Origin: Solemya velum
Taxonomy: Eukaryota
Length of the DNA stretch: 22,338 nucleotides
Reading direction: 5' to 3'
Assembly: GCA_048127485.1 (NCBI GenBank)
Contig: JBHNWI010000632.1
Span: forward strand, 35,183,400 to 35,205,737
The translations under genes and the position numbers were made by a program. The notes beneath the pieces are model-generated. The model was not told where the DNA came from. It ran no database searches and was given only the letters and a program-made list of their open reading frames with translations. Each line of letters starts with the position of its first letter. Within the stretch, counting starts at the first letter, position 1. Positions 2,871-17,624 of the stretch are shown here, in pieces.

Positions 2871-3325
2871 CGACATATCAACAGCAGGACAGTCTGTTGC
2901 GCAATGACCCTGAACACACTTGCAAAACTGCGACCCGAAGAAGCCTTCTATCAGTTTTGGGAGTGTGTGAATGCTACTGTCGCAGTCCTGGAGGAAGATG
3001 AACCAGCAATACCCAGAAAGCGAAAACTGCCGAAGAGGTATCAGGAAGGAGATATGGTGCCGTTTTTCCAATCTACACCAAAACCCCTGTACCGCCAGCA
3101 TTACTACCAGGTGATCCACCTCGACATGATGTGTTTCAAGGACCGGTTCAACAACCTGGTTACAAGACGTACAGAAAAACACAGGACCTTCTGCTTTCAT
3201 CTGTGAACGGAAAAACCTTCGACGATGAATTGGACTTTGTGGCAATTTTCTACGAAACGAACATAGATCGCGACACGCCTCAATGTTCAACTGCAAACTC
3301 TGCAGACAGCAATGAGCTCCAATAA
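2871..3325 (+). pseudogene. hAT-superfamily (ZMYM1/TTF-type-like) transposase remnant, C-terminal portion, frameshifted
   Basis: An open frame without ATG from 2871, then a second frame at 3131-3325, encodes ...EAFYQFWECVNATVAVLEEDEPAIPRKRKLPKRYQEGDMVPFFQSTPKPLYRQHYYQVIHLDMMCFKDRFNN... This fits the conserved pattern WEEFW...RRRKVPRRF...DYYR..FY..LD..L..RF that lies between the DUF4371 domain and the hAT dimerisation domain of ZMYM1-like transposases. The frameshift and stops indicate decay. The match is recalled from memory, not searched. Confidence 0.45.

Positions 3326-3960: not shown

Positions 3961-3999
<39 letters not shown>
3961..3999. repeat. (TG)n microsatellite, ~19 units
   Basis: Seen directly. 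Confidence 0.95.
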
Positions 4000-4000
<1 letters not shown>

Positions 4001-4026
4001 GTGCATGTCACGTCATGATGTGTCCG

Positions 4027-4075
4027 TGCGTGCGTGTGTGTATATGTGTGTGTGTGTGTGTGCGCGCGCGCGTGC
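4027..4075. repeat. Compound (TGCG)/(TG)n/(GC)n simple repeat
   Basis: GTGCGTGCGTGTGTGTATATGTGTGTGTGTGTGTGTGCGCGCGCGCGTGCG. Confidence 0.9.
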
Positions 4076-5531: not shown

Positions 5532-7152
5532 TTATTGGATTTCTATATTAATTGAGTTGTGCATCACAGTCACTATTCTTTTCACATGAGCAACACTAAT
5601 TCCTTAAACTAGTACTGGAAATGAGAAAGTTGTTTGATGCATTTGCAAGGGCTGGGGTATACTGAGGATATCTAATATATGTGCTGTTGAACTGAATATA
5701 TAATGAATTTAGTAATTAACCAAATATGTTTTTAAAATAGTCCCAGTTTTTCCTAAATATATCTTCTTTACCATTATATGTAGCAACAGATTTTTCCAAG
5801 TTATAGTACTCATTTAATATTTTTATGAAAGTCTGTAGATCTAGTTTTTTTGTAGGCATCTTGTGTTGTATATATAGTATCTTAGTATAAGGAAAATGTA
5901 ATTAAGTGCTTTATGTTCATTTGTATTTAGTGGTCCAAAAATGAGATTTTGTTTGTTGAATTCAATTAAAATATTGTTTGCAATTAGATAATTTTCAAAT
6001 TCTCCTATTAGATTTTGAATAAGATTACAATCCCAAATAAATGTTCAAGTGTTTCCATGTCGCCTTTACAGAAACAGCATTGGTTATTTTGTACAATACC
6101 AATTTTAAAAAGCAATGTATTAGTTGGTAGGATATAGTGATTAATTCTGAATTGTAACCAGAGTAGTTTACTGTTATGAGTTATTTGAAAGCAATTGTTA
6201 AAAATGTTTTGCCACTGTTCATCTGTAAAGTTGAAGGTTTTGTTCCATTTTTCTTGCCTGTTGGTTCAGTTTCATTTTTTATAAAAATTCTGTACATATC
6301 TTTTGATCCTTTCTTGGTTTTTATTAGTACCTGTATTGAGTCTGGAATGGTAGGCAACTTAATTGTTTTGGTTGGTTGCGGATATTGTTCTCTCACCAAA
6401 TTTATTGCACTAGCAATGCCGTAGAATTTCAAAAAATTACAGTCTAGATTAAATTTTTCTCTAAATTCTCTGAAGTCGATTGGAACTAGATTACCATTCA
6501 TTAAGTCATTTATACAGCGGATGCCTTTTTTGAACCAGTCTTTATAAAATACTGTAGAATTGTCTATCATAATTTGTTTATTATAAAATAAAGGCATTTT
6601 CAAAAAGGATTCTTCAGACCTGGTAAGTTGTTCATTTTTAATCCGCAATTTTTTAAAAGCTGTAAAAACATCTTTCCAGAAACTGTTGGTTATGTTTTTA
6701 ATACAAATGTCTAAATAATCTGTACCACATTCAAAAGTAAGTGGGTGTCTATTTCACACTCTAGTATTTTAGTATATTTGCATGTATTAGCATTAGTAAT
6801 AAGTCTACGTATCCAAGCAGTCTTTAGAGAATAGATGAATGATTGTATATCTATCATTTTGAGACCTCCTTCCCTGTATGTTTTTATTATTATGTCTCTT
6901 TTGACTCTATCTGGTTTATTGTCCCAAAGGAAACTGAATAAAATGGAATTAGGATTGGAAATGAATTCATCATTGGGATTAGGCAATGCTATAAACAGAT
7001 GGTTAAACTGTGATATAAGAAGTGTTTTAATAACAGTTATTTTACCTAAAGGTGTTAGTTTGCGTCTTTTCCATTTACTTAATATGTGTTTTAGCTTAAC
7101 TAACTTTTTGTCATAATTCATTCTGATAATTTTCTGTAGATCTACATTAAAC

Positions 7153-7953
7153 TCAACTCCAAGTAGATAGAATGAGCTGTTGCCCCAGTATAAAATTCCA
7201 CTTAGAACATAATTTTCCAGCACTATATTTTTTGCTTCCTATCCATACTAACTGTGTTTTTGAATAGTTAATTCTTAGTCCTGAAATTTTTGAAAAAAAG
7301 TATAAGTCTTCTAGTGAGCTATTAAGTGATTCGTAACTACCATCTAGAATCAGAGATGTGTCATCGGCAAAGAGAGATATAAGAAATTTTTCCCCTTCAA
7401 TATTTATACCTTTAATCCTGTCATTATTTCTAATCTTAATTGCCATTATCTCGGCACACAGTATAAATATGTATGGTGAAATTGGGTCACCTTGCCTACA
7501 TCCTCTACTGATAATAAAAAACTCTGAAATATTACCCCTTTGGTTTATTGCGGATTTGATGTTTCTCTGAAAAATTTCAACCCATTTTCTGAATGAATTG
7601 CCGAAGTTAAAAAAAGATGGTGTTTCCTGAATAAATTTCCAGGCAATACTGTCAAACGCTTTTTCGAAATCTATAAGAAGTAGTAGTCCGGGTATATTAT
7701 TGTCTTCTGTATATTGTAAACTGTCATATATTAAACGAGTATTTTCCCCGATATATCTTCCAGGTATAAACCCTGTTTGATCATTTTTGATAAGTTTGTT
7801 CAAAACTGATTTCAGTCTAGAGGCAATCGAGCCGGCTGCTATCTTATATACAGTATTTAGTAAAGTTATTGGTCGCCAGTTTTTTAAGAATTGTCGAGGC
7901 TTGTCTCCTTTAGGTAGACAAGTTATCATACCTGTTCTTTGTGAGTCTGACAA
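7153..7953 (-). pseudogene. LINE ORF2 reverse-transcriptase domain (motifs 0-5)
   Basis: A 266-aa ORF carries the canonical L1-type RT motifs listed above. Confidence 0.85.
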
Positions 7954-8156
7954 TTCTCCAAAACAATATCCATAATTGATAGACCTGACAATGAAATCTC
8001 CAATATTTTTCCAGAAAAATTAAAAAAATTCTTGTGGGAAGCCATCTGACCATGGACTTTTGTTATTTTGCATCTTCTTTAGTGTATTATATGCTTCAAA
8101 GTATGTAATTGGCCCTTCTAAAGATTGTACCGGTGGGCGATGTTGGTGAAGCGGTG

Positions 8157-8222
8157 TGGGGAGGGGAGGGAAGTGGGAGGAGAGGGGGAGAAAGGTGGGA
8201 GAAGGGATCCCCGGTATCCCCT
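8157..8222. repeat. G/A-rich low-complexity tract
   Basis: GGGGAGGGGAGGGAAGTGGGAGGAGAGGGGGAGAAAGGTGGGAGAAGGG. Confidence 0.8.
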
Positions 8223-8382
8223 CTGCTAAATTCACACCGGTATCATACTTAGAGATCTTCTATTAATTAGCACAGTGACTTACGTATCTGTATATATTCA
8301 TTATATAGTATGAGGCTGATTTGCACAAACGAGGAACATATTACACGTGGAATACGCCCGAATTAGTCCGGGAGCTAGTACC

Positions 8383-8770
8383 GATACCCTGCACCCCCCA
8401 GGATTTAACTTTACCCCATTCATTTTGTTCCTTATCATGTCCCTGAACACTTAAGCAATGTTAACATGAAAAAACTGGCCTCATAGACACCAAACAAGAT
8501 GGCGTCCATATGGCCGCCATTTACACCGAATTCATACCATATTACGTCTACCATAGTTAGCAGTATCAGACAAAAAACAAATTCACATCAGTGCTATGAT
8601 TTACTATGGCAATATAAAAGGTTGATATTTTAAACAAAAAATGTGTGCACAAATCCAATATGGCCGCCAAAATGGCTGCCAGAAGTAACAAAATTGAAGA
8701 CATTTTGAGATTTTGAGGCCTATTCTTTGCTGTCAAGGTAGACTTATCCAGATTTCCACCACGCAAGCGA
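8383..8770 (-). repeat. Left arm of a long inverted repeat (inverted copy of the 360-bp monomer plus its terminal segment)
   Basis: The reverse complement of 8383-8770 aligns nearly base for base (>90%) with 9870-10262. Confidence 0.85.
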
Positions 8771-9236
8771 CCATTAACTCCTCATATCAGGCATGCAAAC
8801 TACAGAGTTGGCCAGTGGAAGCTGTCACACCTCAATGACCTATCTCATCCAGATCCGAATGCGCATGGATGGAAACATGAGGAAGGACATCTTGAGCCAG
8901 TGTGGTCAGAGGGACCAATCATACCTGAAAGCCTTTTTGATCTTCTTGGTGAAGGACAATCAGAATCATCGGATAATGAAGATGATGCTGAGGATTTAGA
9001 CTCCAGCTTCAGTTCGGAATCGGATACCTCTGATATGGACTGAGTACTCTTGATAGACTGTCATTATAAAAATACATGTGCTATTCAAGAATGACATTCA
9101 TATTGCATTATTCAGTTTCCACCAGTTTTACTGATACTATAAAGTAAATTATGGCCTCTTCAAATTCAGGAAGAAATAACAAAAGTACAGATAATTATTT
9201 TTGATTGAAAAGTTTGAAAAACTTTATGTGATATCT

Positions 9237-10110
9237 TTTACTTTTGGCAGCCATCTTGGTGCCATATTGGATTTTCATGCTAATGTTTTTTAAATATCAA
9301 TCTTTTCTAGCTGCATAGTGAATTATAGTACTAATGTGAATTTGTTTTTCCATCTGATACTGCTAACTGTAGTAGAAGAAACATAGTATGAAAATAGCGG
9401 CCATATTGGGCATATGTATTCAGACTGGGATTGTATGTGAAGTGGATGACCTAGAATGGTCTAGATTGATATTTTTGATTAGGAATTGATAACCCTTGCT
9501 ACAAATAGTTGGATAGAGCCCATAAGCTGGAGCAATTTGGAAAAACAGCAAAGAATAGGCCTCAAAATATCAAAATGTCTTCAATTTTGTTACTTCTGGC
9601 AGCCATTTTGGCGGCCATATTGGATTTTCACACACATTGTTTGTTTATAATATCAACCTTTCATATCTGCATAGTAAATTATAGTACTCATATGAATTTA
9701 TTTTTCCATTTCATACTGCTTACTGCAATAGAAGACACATAGTATGAGTTAACAGAAAATAGCGGCCATATTGGGCATATCTATTCAGACTGGGATTTTA
9801 TGTGAAGTGGATTACCTAGAATGGTCTAGATTGATATTTGTGATTAGAAATTGATAACCCTTGCTACAAATAGTTGGATAGAGTCCATAAGTTTGGACAA
9901 TTTGGAATGACAGCAAAGAATAGGCCTCAAAATCTCAAAATGTCTTCAATTTTGTTAATTCTGGCAGTCATTTTGGCGGCCATATTGGATTTTTGCACAC
10001 ATTTTTCGTTTAAAATATCAACCTTTTATATTGCCATAGTAAATCATAGCACTGATGTGAATTTGTTTTTTGTCTGATACTGCTAACTATGGTAGACATA
10101 ATATGGTATG
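9237..10110 (+). repeat. Tandem array of ~2.5 monomers of ~352-365 bp, each carrying GGCGGCCATATTGG / CAGCCAT(C/T)TTGG motifs
   Basis: Landmark GGCAGCCAT(C/T)TTGG(C/T)G(G)CCATATTGGATTTT recurs at 9246, 9598 and 9963. A second landmark AATAGCGGCCATATTGGGCATAT recurs at ~9400 and ~9762. Units are ~85-90% identical. Confidence 0.85.
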
Positions 10111-10262
10111 AATTCGGTGTAAATGGCGGCCATATTGGACGCCATCTTGTTTGGTGTCTATGAGGCCAGTTTTTTTTCATGTTAACATTGCTCAAGTGTT
10201 CATGGACATGATACGGAACAAAATGAATGGGGTAAAGTTAAATCCTGGGGGGGGGGGTACTC
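9870..10262 (+). repeat. Right arm of the long inverted repeat
   Basis: See the left arm. Homology ends at a poly-G run (10247-10258) followed by GTACT, mirrored as CCCCCCAGG at ~8392. Confidence 0.85.
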
Positions 10263-10920
10263 AAACAGAACACAAACCACTTAGAAACTAAAATTCGATC
10301 ACATTCTAAGGCAAAATTGCAAATATGTCTCTCCTCACTGCCATTGGAAAAAAGACAACACTGAAAAAAAGCAGCAATACATAATAATACTCGAGGCTGG
10401 CGCAAATGGGATTTCATCCTAGGCTGCCATGAACACAAAATACAAACAATACAACATTTTCTATTTCTTTGTTCGTCACCTGAAGTTAAAATTAATTAGT
10501 TAAACAACTACCTTTAATACGTTTAATTGTTTCTTAATTAAATGAATATCGAGGTCGCGTGCCAAGGACAATATATTTACCTTGGCTCTTATAACGACGG
10601 CGATTCCAGCACCAGAATCATCAACACAAAGCGAAGAAAGTTAAACTGATTGATCAATTCAAAGCTGGATAAGAAAAAAGAGCACAAAAGCGACGGAAGT
10701 TTATATCATTTCAATAATAATCTTAATTTTGTCAATTAACATGCACACAACAATTATACAATTTCATCAAATCTTACAGCTATCTGGACATATATTATAC
10801 ACACATTATTCATTATGAAAAGGAACCTTAAGAAAAAGAGTTAACTTAAAATTGTAATGACAGAATATATTTACATATAAGTATACAAAATATAAACTGT
10901 ATGGTGTTTATTTTTTAGAG

Positions 10921-11025
10921 TGGTTACGTTTTGACCAAATTTTGGTTACATTTTGACCAAAATGTTGGTTACGTTTTGACCAAATTGTTTGGTTGCGTTT
11001 TGGTTTGGTTACGTTTTGACCTGAT
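10921..11025. repeat. Minisatellite, ~23-bp unit GGTTACGTTTTGACCAAA(T/A)TTT x ~4.5
   Basis: Seen directly. It is followed by a short hairpin CCCCCTTTATTCAGGGGG at 11027-11044. Confidence 0.8.
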
Positions 11026-11054: not shown

Positions 11055-11330
11055 ATGGAGCAAAGTCAAGAAACAGTTGTGATAGATTTTGAAATGATAA
11101 AACAGCGAATATTAGATCATAGTATTTATAAACAAAATTGGCATGAAAATAGTTCCAAATCGAATAGATTACAATATTATAAAATATATAAAGAAAATTT
11201 GGAAATTGAACATTATCTGGAACATATTATGACTGATAAATATAGAATCTCTTTAACAAAATTTAGACTGTCATCATATGATTTGGCGATAGTAAAAGGA
11301 AGATATACAAAAACAGATTTTTTTATATTC
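11055..11330 (+). pseudogene. Retroelement-derived ORF fragment with an ...ISLTKFRLSSYDLAIVKGRY... motif
   Basis: The ORF 11055-11414 contains KYRISLTKFRLSSYDLAIVKGRYTK. This resembles the L..LR.(S/G)SH.L.IE.GR(Y/W) C-terminal domain that recurs in retrotransposon ORFs of cnidarian and mollusc genomes. The downstream part is degenerate. Assignment is from memory only. Confidence 0.3.
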
Positions 11331-11426
11331 AGTATTCCCGTTGAAAAGTCTGTTATTTGGTGCTTTTTGTTCTTTAATATATTCAAGATATTTCTGTTGA
11401 AAATGTCTCGATGATTCATGCCACTT

Positions 11427-11758: not shown

Positions 11759-12507
11759 GTGAGGAAACATTATTGAACTTCGATCACTCTTAAGAAGTTA
11801 AATTATAGAAGTTAGTTATACACTCTAATGTAACATCAACTGAACACTAGGCTTAGTTAAGGAAGTAACTTCTACATGTAGTTCTATTGTTATCTGGAGT
11901 ATTACCAAAGCTGTTGTATATACATTATATATTGATTCTAAAAGACATTCTGGTAGTGAACTTTGCGCACCCATTTTCACATGTATTGGCATTTATATTT
12001 TAAAATATTTGCATCTAAAATAAAAGAATGTGTTATTCTCACAAGTTTGTTTTTTCCATTTTTAAAGTTGCATGTGTAATATTTGCAAATAATCATGGGT
12101 TGTCACTGGTCCAGTTCCTTCAATGTCGAACCTAGTTGGCTTACTGCCTAATACTGGTGTCCCTGGAATTTATACCACCCTGGAAATACGGTCAAAATAT
12201 CCCAGTCTCCCGGGTGCTCATATTTCACAGGTTTTACTGTACATGTATACATACACACAAGCCTAGGCATAAAATTTATCAACCCGGCAAATAAGATAGC
12301 GAGGGTCTATTATATATGATATAAGACTATAATAAGTTATTAGGTTATGTAAGATACAGAGCTCCATCTAAGCTTCTCCAAAAAGTAATTAAAATTATGT
12401 CGATGAATACTAAAATAAAATTGTAGATCTAAATGAACTGGATTATTAGAAACCCTGGGATTTGCAACCCAAGGGGGAAATTCGACTGTTTGCATGCTGC
12501 CATTTTT

Positions 12508-12525
12508 GTTGTTGTTGTTGTTGAC
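12508..12525. repeat. (GTT)6 microsatellite
   Basis: Seen directly. Confidence 0.8.
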
Positions 12526-12546
12526 ATATTTAAGTATCAAAACAAA

Positions 12547-12930
12547 TAGTCCTGAAGCTCATATGACTAGTTACCCTAAAGTCTTGGTTCTGTCATTGAT
12601 ATGAAAGTGAACTTTCAAACTTGTCGACAATGACTGTAAAATTTTTTTTTTCAAACTATGAATACGATAAACATCCATGCTATATTGCTTGGGTGTACAA
12701 ATCAATGTATCCCTCATTGGATACCTAACATCCATGATGTGTTAAAGAACATATAGTTGCCATTATAAGCTGTGGTACCGAAAAAATTCAATGTTGGCCT
12801 GGCCATCTTGAATAACAGCCCTATACTCTTTACCATAGGTGAGAACTGTCATCTCCCTTCAATCAAATATCCTATATCGGACCTATGCTCGAATCATGAC
12901 TAGGGTAACCAGTCATAAGCTTCAGGACTA
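12547..12930. mobile_element. hAT-type MITE (384 bp) with ~35-bp TIRs and a perfect 8-bp target-site duplication, in MVP intron 1
   Basis: Left TIR is TAGTCCTGAAGCTCATATGACTAGTTACCCTAAAGTC (12547-12583). Right TIR is GACTAGGGTAACCAGTCATAAGCTTCAGGACTA (12898-12930), ~33/37 matches as reverse complement. It is flanked by identical AAAACAAA at 12539-12546 and 12931-12938. Confidence 0.75.
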
Positions 12931-14377
12931 AAAACAAACATCCTGAATACTGGCACTTCTCTCACAACTGCAGATGCTAACTTCCTATAGGTACTGTAGG
13001 CATGTTCCTATACTTTTCTGCCAAAATAAAAAATTGAAATGCCAAAAATATATCACTGACTGTCATCGTGAGCAGTGTTACATATCCACAAAAAAATGAA
13101 CATTGACACATTGGCTTCAAGAAAGTGAAGAAAACTTGAGTTTTTTCTAAACTCATGATATACCAGTATGTATATTTCTGCAAATAAAACACATGGAGTC
13201 AACACGCAACAACAGTATCACGGACAGTACTGTGAAAATTAACATTTCTTCTCTCTCTTATTCTTGGTCTGTTGATATATATGCTAAAATACATCCACCG
13301 CAATGAAGATTTCTAAATTTTCACGGTGGGGAATGGTGAAGGCGGTTACTTGAGAAATTTTAATTGTAATTGACTGTTGATTTACACCAATAAATGTTGA
13401 AAATGTTCATAGGAATGCATGCAAACTCTTGGCTAGAAACTGAGAAACGCTGTAGATGGCATCCCAAGTAACCTGAATTTTCGAAATTTTTACAGGAGAT
13501 CATGCCCCAGGACCTCCCCCCCCTCCCCGAAGGCTTTGGTCACTTTGGGACCTTGCGATCAAATGCGCTACTGCCTATGATATGTGCCTACACATCTTTG
13601 TTGTGTTAGATATACCCCTGAACTTGGAAACAATATATTTTTATGGTATTGTCCATGTGATGAAAAGGGGAAGTATATTTAAACTATACCCAATTGAGTT
13701 TTTGATTGATTGATTTCTGCAAGGCAATCCACTATGGGTGATTTTTTGGATGCATTTTGCATAAGCATGCAAATTGGTTTTAAGGATATTGACTTTAAAT
13801 CAATTTGTGGAGTTGGCAGTGGGAAGCGAGGTGATGATCTGGACGAAAGTCTTATAGTATGGTGTTGTGCTTTGAATTTTGACTGAATTAAATTGAATAG
13901 TTTTTAATACCCTAATTTATTTGATGGATTTGATATCGAAATTGAAGTACGGTAGGTTTCAATTGGTTGGTCTTAATGTTGTACATGGGGCGTGTTGACC
14001 AGCCTTATATGTATTTTGTCCACTCTATTATGAAGTGGACCATTATGATAATGCAGTGACACCAACCAACCTACAACAATTTTATGCAAAGTATTAATTG
14101 ACCTAAACCTCTTGTAGCAATAGCAGCTTAACAGAGTTGGTGATCAAGAACTACGTCCTTAGCTGTTCATTATTTCATGGATGTAAAATAATGTAATTTG
14201 GGATTTGGAACGATCATCTTGGAAAATGTATACAGAAATGGACTTCCAGGCATAAAACTATAGATGTTAGGTTTTTTAATTAATATACATAACGATACAT
14301 GATCATCCATCTTATTTTCGCATGATAACTACATTTTATCATGTCAATTATTCTTCGAATGATTTTTTTTTCTCTAG

Positions 14378-17081: not shown

Positions 17082-17241
17082 GCTATTGGTGGGAACAATA
17101 GGGCTTCATAGCTGTAATTGTGCATTAGAATCCCCTAAAAAATAAACTCATTATACAGACAGCTATTGGTGGGAATAATAGGGCTTCATAGCTGTAATTG
17201 TGCATTAGAATCCCCTAAAAAACAAACTCATTATACAGACA
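17082..17241. repeat. Tandem duplication, 80-bp unit x2, in MVP intron 3
   Basis: GCTATTGGTGGGAA(C/T)AATAGGGCTTCATAGCTGTAATTGTGCATTAGAATCCCCTAAAAAA(T/C)AAACTCATTATACAGACA is repeated back to back. Confidence 0.85.
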
Positions 17242-17624
17242 GAAACTATACGATTTGTCACCGTCCAAAAGTCACCTGAAATTAGTCAAGAATGAGTTCA
17301 CCTGTTTTCAATGGGGGCTTCCTGCAGAACAACATTGGGAATACATGAACATTCAATTTTGAAATTCATTTATAGAGTCTGATTTAGTTATTATACCATA
17401 GTGACTTCAGACATGTTTTATCTGGTATAGCATAGCAAAATGCTATGCATTTCAACACACTTGCTTCACAAATCTGTAAATGGCAGTGTTGCTTCGAATT
17501 TTCCCGTCAGTATAGCTGGAGAATTGTTTGAACTAATAAAAAATATATAAACCCATGTACTTGGAATATAATTGTAGGTGAACTATCTATGAAATGTTTA
17601 TCTTGTGTTTTGTTGCTGATGCAG

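Follow-up and report, generated by a model that had tools for sequence, protein, structure and literature searches.

Academ is a superfamily of cut-and-paste DNA transposons. The AcademX elements, as described in Kojima 2020 (PMC7165386), are defined by one large protein that combines a DDE transposase with an XPG nuclease and, in animals, by target-site duplications (TSDs) of 3 bp; a Cys8 zinc finger at the C-terminus of the protein is frequent, but not universal. According to the same text, the published ends start with TAGTC, TAGAC or TAGTG, as in TAGTCAGGGGGCC, TAGTCCATGGGCC, TAGTGTGG and TAGACTGGG; of the Acropora AcademX elements given there, one has the terminus TAGTCAGGGGGCCAGAC with the TSD TAC, another the terminus TAGTCCATGGGCCAGACC, and a third the terminus TAGTGTGG... 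with the TSD GGA. Here we analyse a stretch of 22,338 nucleotides from Solemya velum (assembly GCA_048127485.1, contig JBHNWI010000632.1, positions 35,183,400 to 35,205,737 of the forward strand), referred to in full as the window. Positions 8376-10262 of the window, 1887 bp, very probably represent an AcademX DNA transposon that has suffered an internal deletion and is non-autonomous; its plus strand is the sense strand of a transposase remnant. The assignment of the whole element (8376-10262, +) is based on its inverted arms, on this remnant, and on a 5'-TAG tip with a poly-C run as in the related loci L001, L002 and L004. A sequence-only reading of the window had described a composite element, starting at 8383, with inverted arms and a tandem unit, and had offered three explanations: a non-autonomous DNA transposon with long, sub-repetitive terminal inverted repeats (TIRs), a promoter-like array of a long interspersed nuclear element (LINE), or a satellite-like repeat. 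The composite structure is borne out by repeat detection, by Tandem Repeats Finder (TRF) and by 12 copies of GCCATNTT, the start moves outwards to 8376, and the first of the three explanations is the one that we favour, in the form of an internally deleted AcademX element.

The link to AcademX is made by the protein. At 8738-9043 on the plus strand, the window contains the last 101 codons and the stop codon of a transposase gene, as supported by HMMER search, alignment and a profile match. The encoded peptide (8738-9040) reads VDLSRFPPRK...HGW...LEPVW... and ends in an acidic Ser/Asp/Glu tail. An exhaustive HMMER search with this peptide recovers 489 relatives at E<=1e-3, 63 of them at E<=1e-10 and the best at 1.2e-21, and every one of the 489 aligns at its C-terminal ~100 residues, including the acidic tail, in proteins of up to ~620 aa. 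In the opposite direction, a profile of the C-terminal region matches the window from 8738 onwards (E=1.2e-22). The sequence-only reading had pointed out a frame here that lacks an ATG and has an acidic tail; the frame is real, and corresponds to the last ~100 residues of an AcademX protein. In the window copy, an Arg replaces the Cys that is conserved in the LPPC motif. Penelope-like, DIRS-like and Helentron elements, suggested by the head-to-head arrangement of the locus, were dropped because the frame is an Academ transposase C-terminus.

Common annotation routes pass over this protein. The internal peptide has no match in Pfam, at least 10 homologs have either nothing or weak DUF6589 matches only, a PDB sequence search with the family profile returned nothing, and a word-indexed protein search with the peptide alone also returned nothing. 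The earlier expectation that annotation based on open reading frames (ORFs) would miss the element is upheld, and extends to annotation based on Pfam, since neither the protein nor its relatives have a Pfam match above threshold. As a separate observation, most of the database relatives (P0003-P0150) are ‘proteins’ of 70-180 aa that consist of the C-terminal segment alone; either many genomes commonly contain deletion derivatives of AcademX that keep the 3' end of the gene, or the ORF calls are fragmentary.

Profile searches extend the family to longer forms of 750-1040 aa in hagfish, amphioxus, sea slug and many other assemblies, several of which carry weak DUF6589 matches in their N-terminal part. 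At the locus level, the gene continues upstream into an ORF of 571 aa (L001) or 743 aa (L002). The upstream ORF of L002 (5765-7996) matches the transposase domain of Academ-2_SP from the Kojima 2020 supplement (E=1e-26), and that of L001 matches the N-terminal part of protein P0229 (E=3e-43). An AlphaFold2 model of P0164, with a predicted local distance difference test score (pLDDT) of 81.8, has Xrn1/Rat1 as its best solved structure (E ~1e-4, probability 1.0); next come human XPG, yeast Rad2 and the flap endonuclease (D15) of phage T5, and the predicted fold is that of a FEN/XPG-type 5' nuclease. In these relatives, the pairing of such a fold with an Academ transposase agrees with the published definition of AcademX. 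Pfam and PDB sequence searches gave no match to an XPG-like nuclease. The window peptide and most of its close homologs end in the acidic tail and not in a Cys8 zinc finger. The more distant homolog P0255 has a weak Tesmin/TSO1-like CXC match (E=0.0077) that falls below the curated cut-off, and a short stretch with Cys residues closes P0143.

Neither the DDE transposase domain nor the XPG-type nuclease domain is present in the window copy, the DDE domain because it has been deleted. The loss exceeds 90% of the coding region. For the 70 residues that precede the remnant, a profile has no match anywhere in 8300-10300, and across the 22-kb window the protein family has no further match beyond the C-terminal segment. 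Since the left arm ends at 8735 and the coding homology starts at 8738, the arm is fused directly to the codons for V-D-L-S. Coding homology upstream of 8738 was considered, because some tblastn alignments ran into the left arm across NMAAKMAA, a translation of the motif discussed below; it was rejected as an over-extended alignment, since the profile of the upstream 70 residues has no match. Downstream of the stop codon, a non-repeated spacer (9044-9237, +) without repeat or protein match presumably corresponds to the 3' untranslated region (UTR) of the parent gene. In complete relatives, the distance from the ORF to the right arm is ~300 bp (L010) or ~820 bp (L002).

The remnant lies between two long inverted arms. 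The left TIR arm occupies 360 bp (8376-8735) and the right one 355 bp (9908-10262), neither with an assigned strand; the inner edge of the left arm is the deletion junction. Repeat detection resolves the arms into three blocks: 8508-8735/9908-10135 (228 nt, 98%), 8394-8474/10172-10252 (81 nt, 96%) and 8469-8508/10136-10175 (40 nt, 100%). Aligned end to end, ~360 bp against ~355 bp, they are 95.5% identical over 352 aligned positions. The inverted repeat proposed for the outer ~390 bp is therefore real, but shorter than thought, and the inverted copy placed as far as 8770 stops at 8735, with coding homology from 8738. The gap between the arms is 1172 nt, of which ~500 bp form an interior without repeats, so that the ‘1.1-kb interior (8771-9236)’ of the sequence-only reading is inconsistent in itself.

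That the arms mirror each other at their outermost ends had been noted; they do so with TAGTAC/GAGTA, a C-run and AGGATTT. The left tip, preceded by agc, reads TAGTAC-CGATACCCTGCA-C6-AGGATTT (AGGATTTAAC), that is, 5'-TAGTACCGATACCCTGCA followed by C6 (8394-8399) and AGGATTTAAC. The right tip, preceded by ttt in reverse complement, reads GAGTA-C11-AGGATTT (AGGATTTAAC), and appears on the plus strand as G11 (10247-10257) and a terminal ...GTACTC. Relative to the left tip, it has a 12-nt deletion and an altered first base. A TAG start is thus found at the left end (TAGTAC) and, with one mismatch, at the right end (GAGTAC in reverse complement).

A TAG start is also found in L001, L002, L004 and L010, and the arrangement behind it is similar. 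The terminus of L001 is TAGAC(A/C)ATGGGCCAGTAGGGGAAATCCTG-C13/14-TTGGGGATTTTT, in short TAGACAATGGGCC..-C13/14-TTGGGGATTTT, with the TSD TAA and arms of ~185 bp. L002 has the terminus TAGTCCATGGGCCAGAAAGTGAAAACCT-C8-TAGGGAATTTT (in short TAGTCCATGGGCC..-C8-TAGGGAATTTT), the TSD ATA and arms of ~570 bp that are 97% identical. For L004 the right end only is available, TAGCCCGGCATC...-C14-AGGACAATTTT. The end of L010 is 5'-TAGTAGAGTC; this copy has no TSD, and its sister copy L019 has CAT/CAT. Against these, the left end of the window element reads TAGTACCGATACCCTGCA-C6-AGGATTTAAC, with arms of ~360 bp. The C-runs of the window element are inverted relative to each other and so belong to the arms: the poly-C/poly-G run is a feature common to this group of elements, and not a target duplication.

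Foldback and Mutator-like elements typically have long inverted arms that are sub-repetitive, and the CAGG that follows the C-run loosely resembles hAT ends. It might thus be argued that another superfamily with long TIRs (Foldback/MuDR-like, hAT or CACTA) has captured a fragment of an Academ gene. This is very unlikely. Neither of the possible ends has a TSD of 8 or 9 bp, the inverted C-runs are part of the arms, and the tip with its C-run and the motif arrays match those of elements which encode Academ proteins between their own arms.

Between the spacer and the right end lies a tandem array. TRF reports it at 9238-10088, with a period of 365 and 2.4 copies (86% matches). Monomer 1 of the 365-bp unit spans 9238-9590 (+) and monomer 2 spans 9591-9954 (+); the two are 89% identical, and in the register of monomers 2 and 3 the identity is 91% across 300 nt. 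What had been counted as three direct monomers is an array of two full monomers and a half monomer, the latter running into a terminal segment of 125 bp with which the left arm closes as well. The right arm accordingly consists of the end of monomer 2, half of monomer 3 and the 125-bp terminal segment. The arms have diverged by ~2-5% and the monomers by ~10%, which suggests that the tandem duplication predates this insertion; the parent element probably had it already. The possibility that the 365-bp monomer is itself a dimer of two units of ~150-180 bp was rejected, as its halves have no homology beyond the motif.

A tandem 365-bp unit together with an inverted copy could also be taken for a satellite-like or regulatory tandem repeat that has undergone a local palindromic rearrangement and is not mobile, the third of the original explanations. 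We consider this highly improbable, as the array comprises only ~2.4 units and is enclosed by transposon ends, with sharp limits that mirror each other; the transposase remnant has the expected place and orientation, and complete relatives have the same architecture with 3-bp TSDs. A scan of the whole window against Rfam at gathering thresholds gave zero matches, which speaks against the involvement of a ribozyme or another RNA gene.

The neighbouring retrotransposon raises a further alternative. A LINE fragment on the minus strand, with coding homology at 6538-8190, carries a reverse transcriptase domain (RVT_1) and has 2450 database relatives; the closest, P0377 from a Logan assembly, is 97% identical to it over 55% of the query, which places this species or a near relative in public read archives. 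In mouse, L1 5'UTRs contain tandem promoter monomers, and the human L1 5'UTR has a YY1 site. As the upstream end of the LINE fragment faces the array, the array might be the locally inverted, monomeric 5'-UTR-like promoter of this retrotransposon. This second of the original explanations is barely credible. The coding homology of the LINE stops at ~8190, within the ORF that bears the reverse transcriptase, and no endonuclease-domain or ORF1 sequence lies 5' of it, so the LINE is truncated; ~185 bp of unrelated sequence follow before the element begins. The array is part of an element with its own termini, lies inside inverted arms with AcademX-type tips and follows an AcademX gene remnant, and in 16 other contigs the motif is found beside Academ genes and not beside LINE genes. 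An L1 had been described directly beside the array: a 5'-truncated, minus-strand fragment bearing a reverse transcriptase does face the element, at a distance of ~185 bp, and nothing links the fragment to the array. Between the two, at 8131-8205, there is a purine/G-rich tract (ggtgggcgatgttggtgaagcggtgtggggaggggagggaagtgggaggagagggggagaaaggtgggagaaggg).

The arms and the array of the AcademX element are rich in one short motif. The element contains 12 copies of GCCATNTT, compared with 7 in the rest of the window (20.5 kb). Of GCCATNTTGG the window has 10 copies, where 0.11 are expected, and all ten lie inside the element. The genome is AT-rich, the G+C content of the window being mostly 0.30-0.47. 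When the repeats are reduced to 488 non-redundant bp, there are still 4 copies of GCCATNTT compared with 0.126 expected, and none of 3000 dinucleotide shuffles reaches this number. The motif excess is no by-product of base composition or of repeat copying. The sequence-only reading had counted at least 12 copies of a sequence like the YY1 core or a CArG box, and had named a density no higher than composition predicts as a refutation, which is not what is seen. The comparison with CArG fails: the element contains no CArG box (0 matches to CC[AT]6GG), as CCATATTGG has just five A/T between CC and GG and is one base short.

The placement of the motif is regular. In the left arm, an outer cluster (8496-8514, −) comprises GCCATCTT (8496-8503) and GCCATATGG (8506-8514, with 1 base deleted relative to the right arm), and an inner cluster (8655-8676, −) reads GCCATTTTGG-CG-GCCATATTGG. 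The right arm has its inner cluster at 9967-9988 and its outer cluster at 10129-10148. Further copies lie at 9250, 9261 and 9400 in monomer 1 and at 9602, 9614 and 9765 in monomer 2. The clusters are spaced 150-151 bp apart, and every unit is directed to the nearer end of the element. The 13-mer GCGGCCATATTGG is all that its three surroundings, sites A, B and terminal, have in common. Adjoining the outer clusters is a second box, TAGACACCA(A/G), at 8484-8493 (+) and 10151-10160 (−), 2 copies against 0.13 expected; it lies near the motif in 13 of 28 loci (F1, F4, F9, F10) and is similar to some AcademX tips (TAGAC...). The case for TAGACACCAR as another conserved box was set aside as weak, since neither its order nor its orientation is constant with respect to the motif.

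Exact copies of GCCATNTTGGNGGCCATATTGGATTT, a motif pair with 24 specified bases, are found in 28 metagenome contigs that represent ~10 families with unrelated flanks, and similarity of these contigs to the window is limited to 30-50 bp around the motif. Academ-like proteins are encoded on 16 of the 28, with scores of up to 256 bits, in families F1, F2, F4, F7, F10 and, weakly, F3. All 17 motif instances on the Academ contigs point outwards, that is, they lie on the gene strand when downstream of the gene and on the opposite strand when upstream, and the same holds in the window. A complete element of 5.5 kb, L010, has 343-bp arms that are 98-99% identical, each with two motif clusters 153-154 bp apart. 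The outer cluster, which was not in the search pattern, is found 150-154 bp further out in five families, with the consensus GGC(G/A)GCCATNTTG(G/A)ATTT. L015 has four tandem copies of a motif-bearing unit of 152 bp (315 bp x2 in another scoring), so sub-repetitive ends are not peculiar to the window element. The motif sequence is absent from the searchable literature, except for one string in one unrelated Xenopus paper.

Two loci retrieved by protein were considered as carriers of the motif that would be free of this selection, and neither was used. In L003, the 72% inverted repeat belongs to another family: the pair at 2755-2990/11770-12002 flanks the Academ gene and has a hairpin of its own (ATAATGGCTTGGCGCC...GGTGACAAGCCATTAT), but does not represent Academ arms. 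In L004, the array lies outside the Academ end: at 12332-13508 there are ~7 tandem sub-repeats of 130-170 bp, five of them with a C-run followed by GGCGGCCATGTTTTT(C/T), the core of the window motif. This array starts ~700 bp outside the right end of the AcademX element (11643), and may be a neighbouring non-autonomous relative. A further observation concerns L001, where CTGCAG11AGGG is followed by six tandem 43-bp units at 419-707, ~2 kb outside the AcademX element; this may be the end of another element that combines a homopolymer with repeats.

Several observations weigh against the assignment of the window copy to AcademX or against the motif as a family feature. At this copy no 3-bp TSD is seen, AGC (8373-8375) standing opposite AAA (10263-10265), and the right terminus is GAGTA instead of TAGTA. 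The closest protein is just ~55% identical. Neither an autonomous partner nor a second copy was found: exact scans of viral contigs and of metagenome contigs for the TIR tip gave 0 hits each. Pfam scans recognise no DNA-binding domain in the proteins. As to the motif, the 28 contigs were ascertained by the motif itself, and among the loci fetched by protein alone (n=4), L001, L002 and L004 have no exact motif inside their elements, which means that the motif marks part of AcademX only. The missing TSD fits a damaged or rearranged copy; with the damaged right tip and without a TSD, the window copy is probably no longer mobile.

These features show how the element arose and suggest how it may have worked. 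A deletion brought the left arm into direct contact with the final ~100 codons of the gene for the transposase. The resulting copy would make no transposase, and could move only with the enzyme of an autonomous AcademX relative that recognises its arms. The 12-bp outward units, approximately GGC[G/A]GCCATNTTG[G/A]ATTT, arranged as two clusters ~150 bp apart in each arm, are candidate sites for the transposase or a cofactor: the transposase, or a factor that it needs, may bind the units (GGCGGCCATNTTGG) and in this way find and pair both ends, and duplication of the monomer would provide more candidate binding sites. Most likely, judging from position and orientation, the outward motif is a conserved element-end signal that acts as a transposase-binding array. 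In part of this superfamily, which has been little studied, the outward array of GCCAT units seems to be a feature not described before.

As the main alternative, the same transposon could carry the GCCAT units for another purpose, as sites for host zinc-finger proteins of the YY1/Pho type that serve as promoter or enhancer elements or as chromatin anchors. GGCGGCCATNTTG agrees with the YY1 core GCCATNTT and comes close to the longer consensus GCCGCCATCTTG, and in the sense direction of the transposase the left-arm units read AAGATGGCG / AATATGGCCGCCAAAATGGC. In the human L1 5'UTR a YY1 site lies near the start, in the same orientation as the left-arm units. A conserved host factor would also easily explain why the motif is kept in several families with unrelated flanks from different metagenome samples. 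A promoter, however, is needed at one end only, and the units are present in both arms with extra copies at the 3' side; the conserved unit exceeds the YY1 core (...TTGRATTT), and the clusters have a fixed spacing of ~150 bp. We regard host sites as a somewhat unlikely explanation of the units, and one that is compatible with a role in transposition, as a host factor could assist it. A wider proposal along these lines is that an AcademX sub-lineage of at least 6-7 families with unrelated flanks keeps near-invariant outward 12-bp arrays (GGCRGCCATNTTGRATTT) while its arms diverge, recruits host YY1/Pho to the ends for transcription or end pairing, and thereby scatters arrays of YY1 sites; this is, in our judgement, unlikely. 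The fixed outward orientation beside Academ genes in unrelated families argues in the first place for an end signal specific to the element.

The remainder of the window contains a few features of a different kind. A 119-aa ORF that starts with ATG (11055-11414, +) has no Pfam match and gives the impression of the C-terminal part of another LINE ORF2; it is preceded by a 23-bp tandem repeat of 3.6 copies at 10921-11018. A 100-aa ORF at 2904-3206 (+), also without a Pfam match, may be a transposase remnant, and is followed by a (TG)n microsatellite of ~50 units at 3961-4062. Short tandem duplications are found at 17082-17242 (80 bp x2, 97%) and 2647-2741 (46 bp x2, 97%).

The element itself matters little, as a probably dead non-autonomous copy that adds one more defective representative to a known, rarely annotated superfamily; of wider interest is solely the conserved outward array of GCCAT units. 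With AcademX (Kapitonov and Jurka; Kojima 2020, PMC7165386), which includes non-autonomous elements named ‘Academ-N’, it shares the homology of the C-terminus and the 5'-TAG ends, and its complete relatives share the 3-bp TSDs. It differs in that the window copy has no TSD and a damaged right tip, and in the acidic tail that takes the place of the Cys8 zinc finger. A C-run near the tip, arms of 340-570 bp and outward GCCAT arrays were not found in the searched text of Kojima 2020. For annotation, a recognition rule can be given: a 5'-TAG tip, a C-run ~20-30 nt inside, arms of 340-570 bp, and a C-terminus with HGW...LEPVW and an acidic tail.

The Foldback (FB) elements offer a likeness in architecture, as they too have long inverted arms with tandem direct repeats whose copy number is asymmetric between the arms. 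In FB, however, the sub-repeats are 10-31 bp long and fill the arms, the TSD has another length, and there is no protein relation to the window element.

In the arrangement of the motif, there is a likeness to the plant elements Ac/Ds, with AAACGG hexamers, and En/Spm-CACTA, with a 12-bp motif: in these, too, the few hundred bp inside each end hold numerous copies of a short motif, all in fixed orientation. Ac/Ds and En/Spm depend for their mobility on these subterminal repeats, to which the transposase binds, and the model proposed here follows their example. These elements belong to other superfamilies and use other motifs; in the window the motif is also located on a 365-bp tandem unit, and its binding by an Academ protein is putative. 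The outward GCCAT arrays are a concrete candidate for a cis-acting site of Academ transposition, which would be the first to be defined.

Finally, the L1 5'UTR promoters and the YY1 arrays of imprinting-control regions likewise have tandem units of a few hundred bp with sites of the GCCATNTT type. As the unit matches the YY1 consensus, it is advisable to look for transposon ends before such arrays are called host regulatory repeats. The L1 and imprinting arrays belong to mammalian retrotransposons or host control regions, whereas the units described here are found in both arms of a DNA transposon.

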